From Paracoccaceae bacterium (GTDB lineage: Bacteria > Pseudomonadota > Alphaproteobacteria > Rhodobacterales > Rhodobacteraceae), in contig CP075370.1 of the NCBI GenBank assembly GCA_019454225.1, positions 2,721,649 through 2,785,648 on the forward strand: a stretch of 64,000 nt of DNA, in the 5' to 3' direction. The position numbers and the translations under genes are program-made. Below, one piece after another: positions 7,146-62,139 of this stretch. Each line of letters opens with the position of its first letter. The first letter of the stretch is position 1. Below the pieces are notes generated by a model. The model saw nothing but the letters and a program-made list of their open reading frames with translations, did not search any database and was not told the DNA's origin.

Positions 7146-7415
7146 TTACTCGGCTGCCTCGGCTGCGGGGACCACCGAAATGAACGTACGGCCCTTGAGC
7201 CCGCGCTTGAACGTCACATGACCCTCGACCGTCGCAAAGATCGTGTGGTCGCGGCCCATGCCGACACCCGCGCCCGGATGCCAGGTGGTGCCGCGCTGGC
7301 GCACGATGATGTTGCCCGGAATGGCCGCCTGACCGCCGAACAGCTTGACGCCCAGACGGCGACCTGCGCTGTCACGACCGTTGCGGGACGAACCGCCTGC
7401 CTTCTTGTGTGCCAT
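7146..7415 (-). CDS. rpmA: 50S ribosomal protein L27
   Basis: [24 protein letters not shown] is the canonical L27 N-terminus; 89 aa. Confidence 0.97.
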
Positions 7416-7427
7416 GGAACGGGCTCC

Positions 7428-7886
7428 TTACGCGGTTGCGGCGTCGGCGGGCTTGGCCGCCTTGGCACGCTTGGGTTTGGCGGGTGCTTCCACAGCCGCG
7501 GGTGCGGTGCCATGCGCGGCGCGGCGCGCGGCGGCCGTTCCGGTCGCGGCCGCAACGCCGGTCGCCTCGGCGCCCGTGCCCAACACGTCGGTCACACGCA
7601 GCAGCGTCAGCTGCTGGCGATGGCCCTTGGTCCGCTGCGACGAATGCTTGCGGCGGCGCTTGACGTAGTGGATCGTCTTCTCGCCCTTGATCTGGTCGAT
7701 CACCTCGGCCTGCACGGCGGCGCCGGCCACGAAGGGCGTGCCGACCGTCAGCGTCTCGCCGCCGACCATCAGGATGTCGTTGAACTGGATCTTCTGTCCA
7801 GCCTCGGCATCAAGCTTCTCAACGCGCAGAACGTCTCCCGCCTGCACCTTGTACTGCTTGCCGCCGGTCTTGAGGACCGCAAACAT
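7428..7886 (-). CDS. rplU: 50S ribosomal protein L21 with Ala/Lys-rich C-terminal extension
   Basis: MFAVLKTGGKQYKVQAGDVLRVEKL is the canonical L21 start (internal ATG at 7886). It has a long A/K/P-rich tail, as in other alphaproteobacterial L21 proteins. Confidence 0.93.
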   Translation of the reverse strand: MFAVLKTGGKQYKVQAGDVLRVEKLDAEAGQKIQFNDILMVGGETLTVGTPFVAGAAVQAEVIDQIKGEKTIHYVKRRRKHSSQRTKGHRQQLTLLRVTDVLGTGAEATGVAAATGTAAARRAAHGTAPAAVEAPAKPKRAKAAKPADAATA

Positions 7887-8024
7887 GGGCCGCTTCCTTC
7901 TCTCGGTTTCCGCGCCCTGCGGCCCCGGATCGCTCCGGCGTTTGGTGCCTTCGGACAGCGCGCCCCCTGCGGGAGCGTCATCAATGTAAAACCCGGCAAA
8001 GCACAGGCCCCGCCGGGATGCGCG

Positions 8025-8053
8025 CTTATGATCCGCAGCCCCGGGCTTGTCAA
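8025..8053 (-). promoter_or_regulatory. Sigma70-like promoter for rplU-rpmA
   Basis: The minus strand reads TTGACA (8053-8048), a 17-nt spacer, then CATAAG (8030-8025), about 140 nt upstream of the rplU ATG. Confidence 0.5.
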
Positions 8054-8090
8054 GCGCCGGGCCCACGCGCGCGCGCCAGATCTCCGGCCC

Positions 8091-8966
8091 CTAGATGTCC
8101 TGCCCCATGAGTTGCAGCGCCGCCGCGCGGCCAAGGTCATAGGACACCTGGCCGAACACCGCGTCGAAGGCGGCGAACAGCGCGTGGTTCAGCTTCTGAC
8201 CCTGCGGACTCATCGAGAAGGCGACGTAGCCCTCAAGGTCGGCGTCCGACACCGGCCCGTAGGCCAGGGCAAGATAGGGGAACAGCCAGGCCTCGGTCTC
8301 GGCGCGGATCTCCGGTTCCTGCCCCCAGACATCGGCCAGCATCTCCTCCTCGCTCACGCCCTGGCCCATCGCCCCGGCGGCGGCCATGCCGCGGTAGAAC
8401 GAGAGGTTGGCGTTGAGCGCGCCCTGCACATTGGCCTCGATCAGGTCGTTCGCCTCGGCAAAGCGGCGCAGCAGGTCGAGCCGCGCATCGCCCCGTGCCG
8501 TCATGTCCTCGACCTCGATGCGGGCGGCTTCTTCCACCGCTTCGTCCAGCAGCGCCCGCCGCGCCTCGATCTCGAGCGTCAGGATGCGTCTGCCGCGATC
8601 CGTGCCGAAGAATGCCCGCGCGGCCGCGAGCGTGTCGGCATCTCCACCGATCTCGGCCGCCATCGCCGCCTCGAACCGCGCAAGCATGGTCGGCGGGTCA
8701 TAGATCGCCTGCACCGCGCCCGTCCAGTCGGCCCCGCCGCGCCCCGGGAACAGTTCGTCCTCGAGTTCGCTGCCATAGGCCAACCCCTCGTCCCGCATCA
8801 CGGCCAGGAAGTCGTCGATCTTCAGAAGCGCCGTCAGATCGGCCGCGCGCGCCGCGCTTTCGCCGGCCGCCTGTGCGAGCACACCCCGGGGCAGCACAAC
8901 CACCGGCGCGGCGGCAAGCGCGCCAACCAGGCAAACCGTCAGCAGTCGAATACGGATTCCCGGCAT
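8091..8966 (-). CDS. Secreted hypothetical protein, DUF2059-like
   Basis: Signal peptide MPGIRIRLLTVCLVGALAAAPVVVL...AQA (start ATG 8966). The C-terminal block LEGYVAFSMSPQGQKL resembles DUF2059; the family name is tentative. Confidence 0.55.
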   Translation of the reverse strand: MPGIRIRLLTVCLVGALAAAPVVVLPRGVLAQAAGESAARAADLTALLKIDDFLAVMRDEGLAYGSELEDELFPGRGGADWTGAVQAIYDPPTMLARFEAAMAAEIGGDADTLAAARAFFGTDRGRRILTLEIEARRALLDEAVEEAARIEVEDMTARGDARLDLLRRFAEANDLIEANVQGALNANLSFYRGMAAAGAMGQGVSEEEMLADVWGQEPEIRAETEAWLFPYLALAYGPVSDADLEGYVAFSMSPQGQKLNHALFAAFDAVFGQVSYDLGRAAALQLMGQDI

Positions 8967-9089
8967 GTCCACCCCCCGAACGGGCGCCCCATGCACCCTT
9001 CCCTTCGCAGGTAATGCCTGGCCCCCCCGTTGCCAAGCACCCGGCACAGGAGCCGGCCGTTTCCCGCCCGCAACCTGTCAGGATGCCCC

Positions 9090-9141: not shown

Positions 9142-9231
<90 letters not shown>

Positions 9232-9346
9232 CCCGAACGCCCCCGAAATCCAACGATCTCTGCCAGATGCGCCGGCGCGTTCGGAGAGTTAATGCAACCT
9301 TAGCGCCAGACTGATACTGCTTTCGGGCAACGACCCGGAGGAACCG

Positions 9347-10621
9347 ATGCGGCACGAAACCAAGTTTGCGGCCTGGATCAGGTCAGGCGGCAACAGCGTC
9401 TTCGTCTTGCCGCTTGGTCCGGTTCAGGCGCCGGAAGTCAAGTTCTCGGTGGTCCCTGACAGGCTGCTTGACAGCATCATCGACGATGCGCTGGCTACAG
9501 GCGTTGCCCGGCTGAATGGCTTTCTCCCCGAGGGTGTCAGCATTGACATCACGTCGGTCGACCTCACCGCGATCAGGGATCAACTGCGCAGTTCGGTTGC
9601 GGGTCGCCTGAACGAAACGGGCGTGCCGGTCAATCCCAACGACCCAGTCATCAATGCGATCCTTGCGCGATATGCTGAGGCGCTGAACGGCCACTTTCAA
9701 AGAGATGCGCTGCAGCTCGCAACCTACATCTGGCGCAGTCAGGACGATGCCCGTGTTCGCGCTGCGCATGCAGACCACGACGATCGGGTCTTCGCGTGGG
9801 CCAATCCTCCTGCCGGCGGGCATCCCGGCGAGGCATGGAATTGCCGGTGCACGGCAGAACCAATCATTGATCCCCAGATTCTTCCAGAGGGAGCGGTCTG
9901 CGACATCCTGACAGGGGATCGTCTTTCCGATGTATTCCCGGATGCCGACGAAGCCCGTCTGACGCAAGTTGCCAGGGAGATCGACCTGCAGATCGTGACG
10001 GCCGAGTTGAACAGTCCCGAACGACTGGCGCATTTCTTCGGTCAGGTGCTTCAAGAGGTCGGGCAACGAATGCGACTCGTGGAGAGCCTCGACTATCGGG
10101 CGGACCGCCTAGGATCGATCTTCAGCTACTTCAGGCGTAACCCGGAAGAAGCCTTGCTCTACGGGAGAACTGCCGACCATCCGGCAGATCAGGAAGCCAT
10201 CGCAAACCGTGCCTATGCGGACCGCAACGGCAACGGGAATGTCGAGAGTGGTGACGGGTGGAGATTCCGCGGTCGCGGTCTGAAGCAAGTCACCGGCCGC
10301 GCCAACTATCGGGCCTTCGCCGAAGAACACACGCGAATGTTCGGTGAACAGATCGACTTCGAGGCCGAGCCGGACTTGCTGGGAACACCGCGCTACGCCG
10401 TTCGTTCGGCCCTTTGGTTCTGGCACGCCAACAATCTCTTTTCGCTGGCGGACGCAGGTATTAACCGTGCTGCTGCCGATAGCATTACTGCAATCATCAA
10501 TCGTGGGACGGACTCCTATGGGCAGCGCTGGGAAAACGTTCGTCGGCTGAGCGAGTCGGGGGTCTTCGCAAACGTCTGTCGGTTCTCCGTCTCTCGCCCG
10601 CGCTTCGAGGATGCGGAATGA
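9347..10621 (+). CDS. MuF (SPP1 gp7-like) domain fused to a GH19/COG3179 lysozyme-like peptidoglycan hydrolase domain
   Basis: The MuF signature YIWRSQDDARVRAAHADHDDRVF..NPPAGGHPGEAWNCRCTAEP is followed by GH19-like blocks HFFGQVLQEVG, VESLDY, FRGRGLKQVTGRANY, ALWFWHANN and INRGTD. GGAGGA RBS. Confidence 0.8.
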   Translation: MRHETKFAAWIRSGGNSVFVLPLGPVQAPEVKFSVVPDRLLDSIIDDALATGVARLNGFLPEGVSIDITSVDLTAIRDQLRSSVAGRLNETGVPVNPNDPVINAILARYAEALNGHFQRDALQLATYIWRSQDDARVRAAHADHDDRVFAWANPPAGGHPGEAWNCRCTAEPIIDPQILPEGAVCDILTGDRLSDVFPDADEARLTQVAREIDLQIVTAELNSPERLAHFFGQVLQEVGQRMRLVESLDYRADRLGSIFSYFRRNPEEALLYGRTADHPADQEAIANRAYADRNGNGNVESGDGWRFRGRGLKQVTGRANYRAFAEEHTRMFGEQIDFEAEPDLLGTPRYAVRSALWFWHANNLFSLADAGINRAAADSITAIINRGTDSYGQRWENVRRLSESGVFANVCRFSVSRPRFEDAE

Positions 10622-11133
10622 GAAGCGCCCTTCGGCTCCTTGCTGTTGTCTTGCTTATGGGCCTCGCCAGCCGGTCCGTTGGTCAAACAATCTTCGATGG
10701 CCCTTCGGTAGAAACCGCTGAGCTCCGGGTTGAACTGCGACCACAAGGCGAGGACCGATTTGATATCTATCTGACCGACAAAACAACGGGCCGACAGGCA
10801 CACTACGAGTTTGACGGCGAGGGTGCGAACGATCCGGAACCGTTTCTGATTGTCGAGGGCCGCTACTGCGATACGTCGGTCATCCTGCTGACGATCGAGT
10901 TTCCTTGGCGGCATTCATTGCCGCAATACTCCCGCGTCTTGGACACCTACGCTTTTCGCATGTCGGACTTGGCTTATGTCGACATGACGGCTGGGCCGGC
11001 TACCGACATCGCCTTGCTCGACAGTTCTGAAACTGAAGCGGAAGACATGTCAATGCAAACACCGATCCTTGTTGAATGCATCGGGGATCGCGGTGGGAGC
11101 CTGTTCAGATTTGTAATGAAAACAGATGATTAG
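10618..11133 (+). CDS. Orphan secreted protein, candidate periplasmic immunity protein
   Basis: ATGA overlap with the upstream stop and GAGGA 6 nt upstream. N-terminal signal-like MRSALRLLAVVLLMGLASRSVGQ. The rest is acidic and soluble, and I recognise no family. Confidence 0.6.
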   Translation: MRSALRLLAVVLLMGLASRSVGQTIFDGPSVETAELRVELRPQGEDRFDIYLTDKTTGRQAHYEFDGEGANDPEPFLIVEGRYCDTSVILLTIEFPWRHSLPQYSRVLDTYAFRMSDLAYVDMTAGPATDIALLDSSETEAEDMSMQTPILVECIGDRGGSLFRFVMKTDD

Positions 11134-11153
11134 GATGTTAATCAGGTGGAGAA

Positions 11154-11183
11154 GGTTCGACGGCATGCCCATCCCCTCCGCCA
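11154..11183 (+). repeat. Degenerate direct repeat of the tRNA-Ser 3' end (attR-like)
   Basis: GGTTCGA-cggcatg-CCCATCCCCTCCGCCA compared with tRNA 9207-9231 GGTTCGA-at-CCCACCCTCTCCGCCA (7/7 plus 14/16 identities). Confidence 0.5.
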
Positions 11184-11241
11184 TCGACCCGCATCGAACC
11201 ATGGTCGAACGCTCGATTCCCCGTTGGACTGGCCAGAACGA

Positions 11242-11826
11242 TCAGCGGAACTGGTTTGCCCGTTTGTTCTGCGCTGCAAGACTGGCTGTCTCACTGATCC
11301 GTTTCGCCCGCGTGTCCGGCCGCCTCGCCTGCTTGATCCATTCCAGGATGCCGCGCCGGACGGATCGCGGAAAGGCGGCGAAATGCGCCGCAGCCTCGGG
11401 ATACATCACCATTGCGGCGGCCAGATCGACGGGCACCTCCAGCCGTTCGACGTCGTCGAGAAAGGCCCACGATCCATCGGCCCGTGCCGTATCGACAGCC
11501 GCCAGTCCCGCCGGCGCCATCCGGCCGGCCGTCGTCAAGCGCGCGACGCGCGCCTTGTTCGCCGCCGACCACGCGCTGCGAGGCTTGCGCCGCGAAAGAA
11601 GCAGCATCGTGCGCCCTGCGTCCAGCTTTCGCGGCAGGCTGTCCACCCAGCCGAAGCACAGGGCCTCTTCGACGATCGCATCGTAGGGCAGATGGAGGTC
11701 CGGCCTCTGCTTCTTCCATGTGACCAGCCAGATGCTGCCGGAGGTTGCGTGATGCTCCGCGAGCCAGGCGCGCAACTGTGACCGGCTTGTCACCTCGACC
11801 CGCGGCAGATTGCTGCCAGCCGCCAT
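11242..11826 (-). CDS. YdeI/OmpD-associated family protein
   Basis: WLVTWKK....L.YDAIVEEALCFGWVDS and the C-terminal FAAFPRSVRRGILEWI are typical of the YdeI family. TGATG coupling to the upstream gene (ATG 11826; GTG 11829 is also possible). Confidence 0.7.
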   Translation of the reverse strand: MAAGSNLPRVEVTSRSQLRAWLAEHHATSGSIWLVTWKKQRPDLHLPYDAIVEEALCFGWVDSLPRKLDAGRTMLLLSRRKPRSAWSAANKARVARLTTAGRMAPAGLAAVDTARADGSWAFLDDVERLEVPVDLAAAMVMYPEAAAHFAAFPRSVRRGILEWIKQARRPDTRAKRISETASLAAQNKRANQFR

Positions 11827-59019: not shown

Positions 59020-62000
59020 TCACACGGCGGGAGGTTCCGGAACCGAGGGCATCAGCGGCAGCAACGCATCGGCCAGCGCGTCGGCATCATCGCAAAGATG
59101 CAGCGGCAGTATCACCGCGTCCGGCATGGCACGCGCACGCTCTGCCTGTGCACCCAGATCGAACACCGCCGCGCGGAGGCCCAGCGCTTCGGCGAATGAC
59201 AGCGTGTAGCAATGCGTCTCTGGCCAGAGACTGGGAACGAACAGCAGGTCAGGATGCAGGTGTGTCAGATGTTCCAGCGCCTCGGTCTCGCGCCGGTAGG
59301 GGCCGGTGACGCGGACACCCAGTTGCCGCAGCCGGTCGTCGATGTCGCTGTGGCCGACCACGGACAGGTCGACCGGCAGGGCCCGGCGCCGCACCGTCTC
59401 GGCCAGCGCCTCGATCACGCGGCTTCCCTTGTGCGGCCAGACCTTGCCCGGCACCACCATGCGCAGCCGACCGTCCGGCTTGCGCGGCGGCAGCGCGGCG
59501 GCGGCGAGGTGCGGCGGATGGGCGACCACCTCGAACCGGTGGCGGGGAAAGTAACGCCGGAAGATCGCGGCGGCGGCCTCGCTGGGAAGGATGCGGCGGT
59601 CCGCCCGGTCGAACAGCGCGGCATAGGCGGCCTGGCGCTGCAGCGGATCGCCCTGCCCTGCCTCGGCCAGCGGATCGGTCATCGCGGCCCAGGCTTGCAG
59701 CGTGTCGGTATCGGGCGGCCCCCGCCAGGGCGACCCATCGGGCGGCAACAGGCAATACTGGGCACTGATCGCGGCATAGTCATGCCCGATGAACACGATC
59801 TCGCCCCGCAAGGCCGCCAGATCCTCAATCACCTGCGCCTGCATCGGCCAGGACAGGCCCGACAGGCTGTGCACGACAATCTGACCCGGCGACATGGCCG
59901 CGATGCAGCGCGCCAGAAGCCCCCGGTCGCCGCGCAGGTCCACCGCCGAAAGATTGGGAACGAACATACCGCTGCGCGCGTCCGTCTCGACCGTCATGCG
60001 GCAACCATCGTGCAGGCGCAGGATGGCGGCTCCCGGCACCTGACGGATCGCCTGACCCAGATAGGTCTCGACGCCGCCGCCCATGCCATGGCTGATGTGC
60101 AGTGCAGTCACCTGTCCCTGCGCCGCCAACCGCGCAAGATCCAGCGCACGGCGCGCGGACCGCAGCGGATCGGCCCGCAGATGCGTGCGCACGGCGGCAT
60201 TGTGCAGACTGTCCGCCGCGACAATCGGCGCAGGCGCCGAACGTGGCACGCCGGCCCCGGCACGCGGCACGAACAGGTCGCAGGCCACCAGATTCCGCAG
60301 ACCTGCGCGGCGGGCCCGGCGCCCGATCTGCTCCACCGGATCGGTGTCGCCTCCACCATGCGCCAGCAGGGCCAGCGCCTGCGTCGTGACCAGCACACAG
60401 GCCCCGTCTGCGCCCGGCACCTCGACCGCGCGGCCCGCGTTGACGGTCCCGGCAAGACGGTCGATCGCCGCGGCGGACGGTTCGCAGGCCACAAGGTTCG
60501 CGGCCGCGGCACGCGGATAGGCCGCGAAGGCCGCGTGGGTGGACAGCGCGGTGACCGTGGCGACCGGGTCGGCGGCATGCGCCATCAGGCGGCCGAACCA
60601 GCCGGAGAAGACCTGCGCATCCTGCGCGACGACCACCGCCGCGCGTCCCAGGTCCTGCCCCGACAGCACGTCGCGCAGCAGTGCGTTGCGGGGCGTTCCG
60701 GGGGGCGCCGTCCGCCAGAAGACATGACCCTCTTCGTCCAGCGCGGCGAGATCGGCGGTCCAGTCGGCACGGTCGCCCACCTCGACAACTGACACGTCAT
60801 AGGCCGCATCGCCCCGGTTGCGCAGCAGCGACATGATCGTGGGGCGGGGATCGCCGCCCTCGGGCTCGATCAGGACATGAACGGTTGCCACGATGTCGTC
60901 GGTCAGCAGCCGGGGAATGCGCAGCCGGTCGGCAGCCTCCGGCAACGGCGGCGCGGGCCACAGCGTGGTGCCATCCGGAACCCCCCGGATACCGGCCGGG
61001 CGCCCGACATGCTGGAAATGCGCCAGCGGGAATACCCCTTCGGGCAGGCCGACGGGCAGTTGCGCGGCATAGTGCCGGGGATCGAACAGCGGTGAGGGGA
61101 GCCGCCCCTCCTTCCAGCCGTGCAGCAGGTAGTGAACTTCTGGGTCGGCGCCATCGTGCGGCAGGCCCGGGTTCTGCGCCACATAGAAGTCGGCATCGAA
61201 CAGGTCGGTCATCGATGCCTCGACACGGTCCCAACTGTCCCGCGTGCCGATGATATGCGTCAGCATGGTCGCCGCTGCCGGGGCGCGGTCGCCCGACATG
61301 AGTGCGGACAGTGCCAGACTGAATGCCTCGGCCCGATTGCCCGCGGCCAGGTGGGCGTTTGCCTCTTGCAGGTTGCGGGGCAAGGGCGGGGCCGCAGCGG
61401 TCGTCGCCGGTCGCGCCGCGGCAGGCTGCGGGTCCGCGACGGGTTCCGATACGCCCGACAACCGCGCCCGCAGGGCGCGGACGACCTGCGGCTGTCGTTC
61501 GGCGGAGTCGGCCAGCGCTGCCTCGCCCAGAGCCTCGCGCAGGTAGTGAACGAACGGATTGGCTCCGCTTTCCGCCACCGCCGGTGTCTCGCGCAGATAT
61601 GCCTCCGAGGAAAAGCCCGGGGCCGGATCGCGCCCGGTGACTCCGCCCAGGATCAGATAGTGCAGCACCGGGTCCGACGGCACCTCGCGCGGGGCGAAAC
61701 CCCGGCAATAGGCGGGGACATTCATGAACTCCGCGACAAGCGCCCGGTCCGGATGCGCCGCGAAGCCCCGGCCCGGCGCCGCAATATCCAGACGCCGCTC
61801 GATCACCGCGTCGGCGGCCGCCTGCAACCGCATGATCACGCCGAGGCGACGCATGTCGTTGCCGCCCGCCTCGCGATGCGCGCAGAATATGTGCAGGCGC
61901 AGTTCCTCTGCATCCTCCGGCAGGGTGAAGACCGGCAGCCTCGTAAGCTTGCCGCGCGTCACCTCGACACGGTGGCAGGTCTGTCCATCCCAGACGGCGA

Positions 62001-62139
62001 CCACTTTGCTCGACTGCTGCCGCGCATCATGCGGCAGGAAGAACGACACCTGGACATCGCCACGGCCCTCGATCGCCAGCGCGCCCTCGATCTCGAGCCA
62101 GCCGTCGCCGTGCCAGTTGATCGCTTTGACGCGGCTCAT
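59020..62139 (-). CDS. Large multidomain glycosyltransferase-like protein (C-terminal GT1/GT4-like domain)
   Basis: 1039-aa continuous ORF. The C-terminus MVVPGKVWPHKGSRV...VGHSD...FVPSLWPETHCYTLSEA is GT-B-like. Two copies of the DPxxHYLxxGxxEGR motif occur near the N-terminus. Confidence 0.6.
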   Translation of the reverse strand: MSRVKAINWHGDGWLEIEGALAIEGRGDVQVSFFLPHDARQQSSKVVAVWDGQTCHRVEVTRGKLTRLPVFTLPEDAEELRLHIFCAHREAGGNDMRRLGVIMRLQAAADAVIERRLDIAAPGRGFAAHPDRALVAEFMNVPAYCRGFAPREVPSDPVLHYLILGGVTGRDPAPGFSSEAYLRETPAVAESGANPFVHYLREALGEAALADSAERQPQVVRALRARLSGVSEPVADPQPAAARPATTAAAPPLPRNLQEANAHLAAGNRAEAFSLALSALMSGDRAPAAATMLTHIIGTRDSWDRVEASMTDLFDADFYVAQNPGLPHDGADPEVHYLLHGWKEGRLPSPLFDPRHYAAQLPVGLPEGVFPLAHFQHVGRPAGIRGVPDGTTLWPAPPLPEAADRLRIPRLLTDDIVATVHVLIEPEGGDPRPTIMSLLRNRGDAAYDVSVVEVGDRADWTADLAALDEEGHVFWRTAPPGTPRNALLRDVLSGQDLGRAAVVVAQDAQVFSGWFGRLMAHAADPVATVTALSTHAAFAAYPRAAAANLVACEPSAAAIDRLAGTVNAGRAVEVPGADGACVLVTTQALALLAHGGGDTDPVEQIGRRARRAGLRNLVACDLFVPRAGAGVPRSAPAPIVAADSLHNAAVRTHLRADPLRSARRALDLARLAAQGQVTALHISHGMGGGVETYLGQAIRQVPGAAILRLHDGCRMTVETDARSGMFVPNLSAVDLRGDRGLLARCIAAMSPGQIVVHSLSGLSWPMQAQVIEDLAALRGEIVFIGHDYAAISAQYCLLPPDGSPWRGPPDTDTLQAWAAMTDPLAEAGQGDPLQRQAAYAALFDRADRRILPSEAAAAIFRRYFPRHRFEVVAHPPHLAAAALPPRKPDGRLRMVVPGKVWPHKGSRVIEALAETVRRRALPVDLSVVGHSDIDDRLRQLGVRVTGPYRRETEALEHLTHLHPDLLFVPSLWPETHCYTLSFAEALGLRAAVFDLGAQAERARAMPDAVILPLHLCDDADALADALLPLMPSVPEPPAV

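Follow-up and report, generated by a model that had tools for sequence, protein, structure and literature searches.

What does a small, apparently exported protein do when its gene begins inside the stop codon of a gene for a putative murein hydrolase? The question is raised by a chromosomal locus of Paracoccaceae bacterium (GenBank assembly GCA_019454225.1, contig CP075370.1), where such a gene occupies positions 10618-11133 of the + strand of a 64,000-nucleotide (nt) window, the whole stretch of DNA analyzed here (positions 2,721,649 to 2,785,648 of the contig, forward strand). It follows a gene at 9347-10621 for a 424-amino-acid (aa) enzyme that joins an N-terminal MuF-type domain to a C-terminal GH19-type muramidase domain, and we call its product the partner. 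Comparison of sequences, predicted structures and loci across many genomes suggests that the partner is probably the cognate periplasmic immunity protein, an inhibitor of the GH19-type muramidase domain of the upstream protein, which would be a polymorphic toxin. We infer physical binding, inhibition, a periplasmic site of action, a C84-C154 disulfide and the route of delivery from the same comparisons.

The coupled gene and its exported product

The partner open reading frame (ORF), which specifies 171 aa, starts with an ATG (10618-10620) that runs into the TGA stop codon (10619-10621) of the enzyme gene, making an ATGA at 10618-10621, and a GAGGA at 10607-10611 stands 6 nt 5' of the ATG. These coordinates bear out what had been noticed in a sequence-only reading of this DNA, and both features are kept in other genomes: among 33 distinct enzyme-partner pairs, 32 retain an NTGA overlap and 32 retain the GAGGA, the overlap usually being 4 nt in loci from a scan of species genomes described below. 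At 10600-10621, the bases for the strongly conserved C-terminal peptide of the enzyme (..PRFEDAE) also form the GAGGA and the start codon of the partner; the F-E-D codons are under double constraint, since the same bases encode the enzyme C terminus and the Shine-Dalgarno sequence and start of the next gene. Co-expression had been called obligate, a word that proves too strong. The coupling signals are conserved, but an intact partner persists where the enzyme has been deleted (loci L126, L004, L096, L103, and L128).

The N terminus of the partner, MRSALRLLAVVLLMGLASRSVG before a predicted cleavage at SVG/Q, has a positively charged n-region, a hydrophobic core of 12 to 13 residues, and S-V-G at the -3/-1 site, so that aa 1-22 (10618-10683, + strand) form the predicted signal peptide and aa 23-171 with the stop codon (10684-11133, + strand) form the mature domain. 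Applying the same sequence rules (n-region, apolar run, -3/-1 site) to 93 distinct homologues gave a net-positive n-region in 91, an apolar run with a median of 12 and a maximum of 18 residues, and a small-residue -3/-1 site at residues 19-30 in 92, nearly all of them at 20 or 22. The Sec-type signal seen at first reading thus holds for the family as far as such rules go, and the partner is predicted to be exported to the periplasm, the compartment where the toxin would act. The signal region contains no cysteine and no lipobox; it is conserved in kind and freely variable in sequence. The mature protein has an isoelectric point of 4.24 and a net charge of -17, confirming the acidic character of a body that had been described as acidic and soluble looking. 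All 93 homologues have exactly two cysteines in the mature part, with C84 and C154 invariant. The ratio of nonsynonymous to synonymous substitution rates is ~0.2 for the mature partner, 0.7 to 0.8 for its signal peptide, a range typical of signal peptides, and 0.11 to 0.16 for the enzyme. Selection on the mature partner is purifying, and on the signal peptide it is relaxed.

These features bear directly on a quite different explanation, in which the two genes are the lysis cassette of a defective phage or gene transfer agent (GTA) and a GH19 endolysin works with a signal-anchored class III holin, antiholin, or spanin-like partner that controls or completes envelope disruption. A lysin gene followed by a gene for a small protein with one N-terminal hydrophobic segment does occur in phage lysis modules. 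Rhodobacterales widely carry GTAs, which need lysis genes (PMC7296036), and among solved structures and PHROG families the GH19 domain is closest to phage endolysins. The short run followed by a -3/-1 site in 92 of 93 homologues, however, indicates a cleaved signal peptide rather than an anchor, and the predicted structure of the partner is all-beta and not the coiled coil of an i-spanin. The retained anchor or lipobox, the alpha-helical periplasmic domain, and the lysis-module location of holins and spanins are all lacking in the partner, and neither 50,697 phage genomes nor 2.9 million viral contigs nor 72,556 plasmids yielded a homologue of it. Two further points concern the enzyme: intact partners are kept where it has been deleted, which makes no sense for a lysis accessory, and its MuF head-protein domain is common to non-lytic toxins. 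A lysis cassette is hence highly improbable. The sequence-only reading had also judged immunity a better fit than a holin, and the short cleavable hydrophobic run, the all-beta model, and the absence of homologues from the phage collections agree with it.

The partner had further been called an orphan of no recognized family. No curated family matches it: searches of Pfam, NCBIfam, and PADLOC gave no match, and PHROG gave only a weak one (E value of 0.16). It is no orphan, since the 93 homologues place it in a protein family that is small but real. Among 5.8 billion proteins, a search returned 76 homologous clusters, all of ~171 to 176 aa, with Rhodobacter, Paracoccus, Defluviimonas, and Tabrizicola among their named sources; the identical protein on record is a hypothetical protein of a Paracoccaceae metagenome-assembled genome (MAG). 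In a profile search, 1.84 billion representatives yielded only 52 clusters at 50% identity, and on that count the family is narrow, limited to Paracoccaceae and relatives. A profile search of the PDB matched no solved structure. The AlphaFold2 model of the partner (predicted local distance difference test [pLDDT] of 80.4; predicted template modeling [TM] score of 0.74) consists of an N-terminal helix followed by an all-beta body, and a Foldseek search with it gave nothing significant in the PDB (best E value of 0.077, TM score of ~0.3) or BFVD (best E value of 0.011). Profile and fold searches thus leave the partner without a significant family or fold match; the sequence-only reading had recognized no family either.

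The enzyme gene and what the partner follows

The enzyme is predicted to consist of two modules. The N-terminal MuF-type (phage minor head protein) domain, presumed to be a trafficking or packaging module, spans aa 1-185 (9347-9901, + strand). PF04233 (Phage_Mu_F) matches aa 118-170 with an E value of 3.5e-11 and 44.3 bits against a cutoff of 29.6, covering model positions 58-111 only; TIGR01641 matches at 4e-7 with 30.4 bits, under its curated cutoff of 39.65. The stretch of aa 1-173 shares 32 to 34% identity with MuF proteins of viral contigs, including a MuF-CdiA_C toxin. The C-terminal domain, aa 186-424 with the stop codon (9902-10621, + strand), is by its sequence matches clearly of the GH19 lysin type. 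It matches the endolysin family PHROG 181 at 4.6e-50 and the solved structures 9eoi (6e-30, aa 189-394), 4ok7 (SPN1S endolysin, 2e-19), and 8xcl (TseP C-domain, 1.2e-16); the Pfam GH19 model scores below threshold, at 13.2 bits. The glutamates E237 and E246, nine positions apart, do not vary among 20 homologues; they align with the Glu of the HES motif and the Glu of the VEN motif of 9eoi, respectively. The AlphaFold2 model of the whole enzyme (pLDDT of 48) is too poor for fold searching.

How faithfully do the two genes stay together? Across 185,579 species genomes, one per species, we found about 37 full MuF-GH19 genes, almost all in Rhodobacterales, and all of these, save those truncated at a contig end, have a partner gene after them. 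From the partner side, 41 metagenome loci have the enzyme or a remnant of it directly upstream wherever room exists. The flanks vary between genomes and include polyhydroxybutyrate genes, nap genes, cytochrome oxidase genes, insertion sequence (IS) elements, and tRNAs. Linkage to hydrolase genes, on which the immunity proposal had been staked beforehand, therefore holds in both directions, with few partners lacking an enzyme or remnant.

The exceptions to intact pairs are one-sided. Both genes are intact in 48 distinct loci, the partner is intact with the enzyme broken or absent in 15, both are broken in 2, and a broken partner beside an intact enzyme was seen in 0. At L126, which adjoins an ABC transporter operon, only the last 15 enzyme codons remain; in the isolate genome of Paracoccus alkenifer, the enzyme gene has lost an internal segment, as seen in three assemblies; and L081, L096, L103, and L128 are further clear enzyme deletions. 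The partner accounts for 29% of the coding length, and if lesions fall by length the probability that none of 15 single-gene lesions lies in the partner is ~0.006; the same estimate for the eight clear deletions alone gives ~0.07. The toxin is never kept without the partner and the partner is sometimes kept alone, which is the pattern of a toxin and its immunity gene, not of an enzyme and its helper.

Is it the MuF module or the GH19 domain that the partner goes with? A GH19 gene of Paracoccus marinus lacks the MuF motif and precedes a gene for a signal-peptide protein homologous to the partner (hmmsearch E value of 4e-13; hhalign probability of 98%). Distance correlations over 33 distinct pairs were ambiguous for the whole partner, with Mantel-type correlations to the two enzyme domains of 0.74 and 0.63, until the partner was split into windows. 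Split in this way, the cassettes show a mosaic history: enzyme aa 186-424 co-vary with partner aa 1-100 (r of 0.57 to 0.80), and between the two enzyme domains the correlation is weak (r of 0.33). Each GH19 C-terminal type is found with each partner tail type, four combinations in all. Most simply, the GH19 domain and two-thirds of the partner make up a central block that has been swapped as a unit between backbones, which would resemble the way polymorphic toxins exchange toxin tips together with immunity genes. The partner also diverges faster than the enzyme (mean distance of 0.45 versus 0.34 and 0.29; identity to the Ruegeria pair of 26% versus 63%), which by analogy fits the usual behavior of immunity proteins.

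The MuF-type N-domain is shared among different toxins. We found it with four C-terminal domains: GH19, two unknown ones of 340 aa (L031) and 200 aa (pTB4), and CdiA_C (L134). At L031 (3392-7802), inserted at a tRNA-Ser(GCT), a 533-aa protein has the leader of the GH19 cassettes, the MuF-type N-domain, and an unrelated C-terminal domain; its gene is followed by two small paralogous ORFs (90 and 115 aa) without signal peptides and then by a MuF-GH19/partner pair. Plasmid pTB4 of Roseobacter denitrificans (L132, NC_008389.1) carries an unannotated, origin-spanning gene (~5437 to ~490) for a 293-aa protein in which the MuF motif is joined to a C-terminal domain of unknown type, followed at 520-981 by a different small ORF whose product begins with a hydrophobic segment; a BrnT/BrnA pair lies on the plasmid as well. 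The viral contig L134 encodes a 559-aa protein with a homologous N-domain (34% identity) and a CdiA_C toxin domain. A protein search with the N-domain returned mostly fragments. In these sequences, the downstream gene thus appears to change with the toxin domain and to be exported only when the toxin would act on the wall. Features by which polymorphic toxins are recognized (Zhang et al. 2012) recur here: a shared N-terminal module with interchangeable C-terminal domains, a downstream gene that switches along with the toxin domain, a toxin domain shared with other delivery systems, and orphan immunity genes and degraded toxins.

This evidence bears on two alternatives that leave the partner exported and linked to the enzyme. 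In the first, the partner is not an inhibitor and serves as a periplasmic accessory, either a factor for delivery, activation, or reception of the toxin or an exclusion factor that modifies the surface or periplasm and is only a passenger of the toxin gene. Linkage alone cannot separate an inhibitor from another obligate partner, the predicted fold is unlike that of any immunity protein, and it is the MuF N-domain with which the partner tail co-varies. A delivery or activation factor should go with its toxin, yet 15 loci keep the partner alone and none keeps the toxin alone. The homologue after the MuF-less GH19 gene also argues against it, and the other toxins built on the MuF N-domain have different, non-secreted downstream ORFs, meaning that the downstream gene matches the compartment of the toxin, as immunity genes do. 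The tail co-variation is more simply explained by recombination arms flanking the exchanged block. We regard an accessory role as unlikely, with a small chance of being right.

In the second alternative, the partner is a general periplasmic lysozyme inhibitor acting against exogenous muramidases, in the manner of PliG, PliI, Ivy, or LprI, and has no cognate toxin. PliC/MliC, PliI, PliG, Ivy, and LprI are small proteins, mostly beta and exported by Sec, which act in the periplasm by blocking muramidases, and the partner is likewise small, beta-rich by its model, and predicted to be periplasmic. Orphan partner copies persist without the enzyme, and an LprI-domain protein encoded after a GH24 effector (L059, below) indicates that inhibitor families are recruited as immunity proteins. 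Known inhibitors of this kind are chromosomal defenses against host lysozymes, untied to a toxin gene. Against this alternative, the partner family is tiny, with its 52 clusters, and is essentially confined to sites beside this GH19 lineage or what remains of it; exchange of the GH19 block takes in the N-terminal two-thirds of the partner, which suggests matched variants; and the family matches the Pli, Ivy, and LprI families neither in sequence nor in fold. A general inhibitor is hence very unlikely.

Several observations weigh against the cognate immunity function that we favor. The enzyme lacks a signal peptide, and no secretion-system, prophage, or capsid genes lie near the cassettes examined. 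The partner and the GH19 domain are both acidic, so there is no charge complementarity between them. Partner aa 136-171 co-vary with the MuF N-domain (enzyme aa 1-185; r of 0.69 to 0.83) and not with GH19, which could reflect interaction with the N-domain in place of the recombination arms proposed above. The GH19/partner co-variation is compatible with functional matching but is no proof of it, because adjacent genes are co-inherited by position. In sequence and predicted fold, the partner is unlike any of the known immunity or lysozyme-inhibitor families (Tsi1, Tsi3, X-Tfi, TsiP, PliC/I/G, Ivy, and LprI). Lastly, some of the enzyme genes scored as broken in metagenomes may be assembly errors.

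Proposed mechanism and known systems

How might a cognate immunity protein operate from this locus? Both genes would be transcribed from the cassette leader, and ribosomes ending the toxin gene would restart at the ATGA via the Shine-Dalgarno sequence in the F-E-D codons, so that translational coupling would provide the partner whenever the toxin is made. The partner would be exported by Sec and cut after SVG22, and its all-beta domain would fold in the periplasm, probably with a C84-C154 disulfide. There it would bind any GH19 domain that reaches the periplasm and block peptidoglycan cleavage, whether the enzyme comes from neighboring cassette-carrying cells or leaks from the cell's own cytoplasm. 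The N-terminal MuF-type domain would be the delivery module of the toxin, and co-inheritance of the central block would keep the partner matched to the toxin variant.

A close functional precedent is XAC2609/XAC2610 (X-Tfe/X-Tfi) of the bactericidal type IV secretion system (T4SS) of Xanthomonas citri, a GH19 effector and a periplasmic immunity protein established by experiment; XAC2610 guards against the cell's own signal-less effector once this has reached the periplasm (PMC10933484). As in that pair, a signal-less protein with a GH19 peptidoglycan-cleaving domain is encoded here with an inhibitor directed, by prediction, to the periplasm. Unlike XAC2609, which is recognized through a C-terminal XVIPCD and the T4SS, the enzyme carries its MuF domain at the N terminus and is not linked to secretion genes; unlike X-Tfi, a beta-propeller-like lipoprotein, the partner has neither a lipobox nor a detectable fold match.

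A second precedent is TseP/TsiP of Aeromonas dhakensis, in which TsiP binds and inhibits the lysozyme domain of a dual amidase-lysozyme type VI secretion system (T6SS) effector (PMC11893102). The C-domain of TseP (PDB 8XCL) is homologous in sequence to the GH19 domain here (E value of 1.2e-16), and TseP-like proteins of other Proteobacteria precede signal-peptide ORFs, with one adjoining a VgrG gene. TseP, in contrast, is large and VgrG dependent and has an extra amidase domain, TsiP shows no detectable sequence relation to the partner family, and no T6SS genes were found near the Rhodobacterales cassettes examined. The sequence-only reading had likened the layout, a small secreted protein encoded directly after a murein hydrolase, to T6SS immunity. 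Comparative genomics supports the immunity layout; the likeness to T6SS is an analogy only, since the toxin has a MuF domain and no linked secretion genes.

GH19 domains of this type also occur at the ends of larger proteins. The closest ones outside Rhodobacterales (35 to 52% identity) are C-terminal in proteins of 700 to 1177 aa from Gammaproteobacteria and Betaproteobacteria, including Pseudomonas, Paraburkholderia, Lysobacter, and Luteimonas. At ~40 such loci, the next ORF encodes 130 to 320 aa with an N-terminal hydrophobic signal in nearly all cases, often with a 4-nt overlap, a layout that by analogy favors immunity for the partner too. A VgrG gene lies directly upstream of the GH19 protein in Stutzerimonas (L062, 2014-6723), and the best solved-structure match of the 831-aa GH19 protein of Caballeronia (L059) is the C-domain of TseP, a T6SS effector. 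Just upstream of that Caballeronia GH19 protein and its signal-peptide ORF (L059, 12-7121) stand a gene for a 778-aa protein ending in a GH24 phage-lysozyme domain and, after it, a gene for an LprI lysozyme-inhibitor-domain protein. A low-GC Rhodobacteraceae contig (L050, 635-3981) encodes two toxins with a common N terminus and linker that end in an N-acetylmuramidase (PF11860) or a GH19 domain, each followed by a signal-peptide ORF of 175 to 184 aa. The second of these ORFs was considered by eye as a very distant homologue of the partner and rejected (hhalign probability of 0.2%).

MuF polymorphic toxins combine an N-terminal MuF domain (SPP1 gp7/Mu F) with variable C-terminal toxins and have immunity genes downstream (PMC5576092, PMC3482391). 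The enzyme resembles them (Jamet et al. 2017; Zhang et al. 2012) in its N-terminal MuF domain, which is shared with the viral MuF-CdiA_C toxin at 34% identity. Those described so far lie in prophage packaging modules, mainly of Firmicutes, and are cytoplasm-acting nucleases, ADP-ribosyltransferases, and RelA-like enzymes, whereas here a stand-alone chromosomal minicassette of Alphaproteobacteria encodes a predicted periplasm-acting muramidase with an exported immunity candidate. Jamet et al. 2017 uses none of the words chitinase, lysozyme, and peptidoglycan. No packaging-module setting was seen here: every locus examined is flanked by housekeeping, tRNA, or IS genes.

A peptidoglycan-hydrolase effector with a periplasmic immunity protein in the polymorphic-toxin frame is already known. 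New within the literature searched are the candidate immunity family, a MuF domain joined to a wall-acting domain outside a prophage, and the integrase-less minicassette at tRNA-Ser genes described below. If our reading is true, the partner would represent a previously undescribed family of periplasmic muramidase inhibitors and a possible tool for blocking GH19-type lysins, and MuF toxins would extend from cytoplasm-acting domains in Firmicutes prophages to a wall-acting domain in Alphaproteobacteria. The long-standing question of how MuF toxins are delivered would then become directly testable in GTA-making organisms.

The tRNA-Ser cassette and its surroundings

A tRNA-Ser(CGA) gene, identified with ARAGORN, lies at 9142-9231 (+ strand), and its 3' end (..CTCCGCCA) forms the left boundary and insertion site of a unit that starts directly after it. 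A conserved leader of 115 nt (9232-9346, + strand) follows, with a left arm CCCGAACGCCCCCGAAATCCAAC at 9232-9254, the site TTAATGCAACCTTAG at 9289-9303, and a ribosome-binding site GGAGGAA at 9337-9343. The right boundary is a pseudo-tRNA 3' end of 36 nt, GGAGAAGGTTCGACGGCATGCCCATCCCCTCCGCCA (11148-11183, + strand), an att-like direct repeat of the tRNA-Ser 3' end. In other genomes, the cassette likewise begins directly after a tRNA-Ser 3' end, with the anticodon CGA, GGA, TGA, or GCT (cassette ends were noted at L003, L010, L016, L019, L023, L027, L031, L034, and L045). The leader aligns across loci, its first ~24 nt being invariant even in the L031 cassette with another toxin. The right-end element lies ~14 to 50 nt past the partner stop codon, and a related element occurs at a like offset in most of 33 distinct loci; it ends in TCCGCCA in 17 loci and in a variant ending CCGCCA in most others. 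Past this element, the flanking sequences differ between loci and often run into the native tRNA terminator. In the tandem arrays of L019, L027, and L031, the right-end element abuts the next leader.

No integrase gene lies inside the unit. On these sequence comparisons, the pair is an integrase-less minicassette of ~2 kb bounded by the tRNA-Ser 3' end and the pseudo-tRNA end, and together with the 115-nt leader and the 36-nt pseudo-tRNA end it would be inserted as such at tRNA-Ser 3' ends; its mode of mobility is inferred. The left-arm sequence was not found in viral contigs when these were searched for a helper phage, and a repeat finder did not detect the degenerate att-like repeat. We took the right-end element for the decayed end of a tRNA rather than a structured RNA, because its RNA fold is no stabler than that of shuffled sequences (z score of -0.78). 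A very small integrase-less unit found at four tRNA-Ser isoacceptors and stacking in tandem may illustrate a general way of collecting toxin-immunity pairs.

How is the unit expressed? A promoter and terminator scan of the + strand found no sigma-70-like promoter and no terminator. The site TTAATGCAACCTTAG is the only TTAA-N7-TTAR site in the window, where 0.03 are expected by chance; a perfect TTAA-N7-TTAAC is present at several other loci, and leaders of a second type carry GTTAAC-N7-TTGAC. The consensus of the CtrA box is TTAA-N7-TTAAC. By its sequence, the leader site resembles a CtrA box and is a candidate regulatory site.

The site, the att-like ends, and the MuF domain can be combined into a more far-reaching proposal, that the cassette is a hitchhiking weapon borrowing both its delivery machine (helper-phage or GTA capsids) and its mobility machine (a helper recombinase). 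By way of its MuF domain, the muramidase would be packed into the capsids of a resident GTA or a helper phage. RcGTA-type particles eject their contents into the recipient periplasm (PMC7296036). The toxin would then be released into the very compartment of the exported partner, which would serve to mark kin. Through the CtrA-box-like site, expression would be linked with the regulon of GTA production and recipient competence, and a helper recombinase would act on the pseudo-tRNA att ends, spreading the cassette among tRNA-Ser genes. We hold this extended proposal to be a long shot.

The surroundings of the cassette set it apart. GC content is about 0.61 to 0.71 per 2-kb stretch of the window, and third-position GC is 0.68 for the enzyme gene and 0.61 for the partner gene, compared to ~0.8 to 0.9 for the flanking genes; because of this lower value, we consider the two-gene pair an acquired islet. 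The flanking housekeeping genes lie on the minus strand, with those for a DUF2059 protein, rplU, obg, and proB upstream and those for a YdeI/OmdA protein and an epoxide hydrolase downstream. Two long + strand ORFs, 7218-9014 and 11126-11686, were considered as genes and rejected as antisense shadows of the minus-strand rplU, DUF2059, and YdeI/OmdA genes; their translations are rich in arginine and alanine, and their GC2/GC3 pattern is noncoding. Ten further ORFs surveyed in the window included no phage, GTA, or secretion-system genes. Far from the cassette, at 59020-62139 on the minus strand, a 1039-aa ORF has coding-like codon GC and no Pfam match at an E value of 1e-5.

Two database records place cassettes of the Paracoccaceae type, with 71 to 76% protein identity, in other lineages: L033 (CP059262.1, labeled MAG Exiguobacterium profundum) and L021 (labeled Sphingomonadales). 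Both records probably reflect misbinning or mislabeling rather than transfer.

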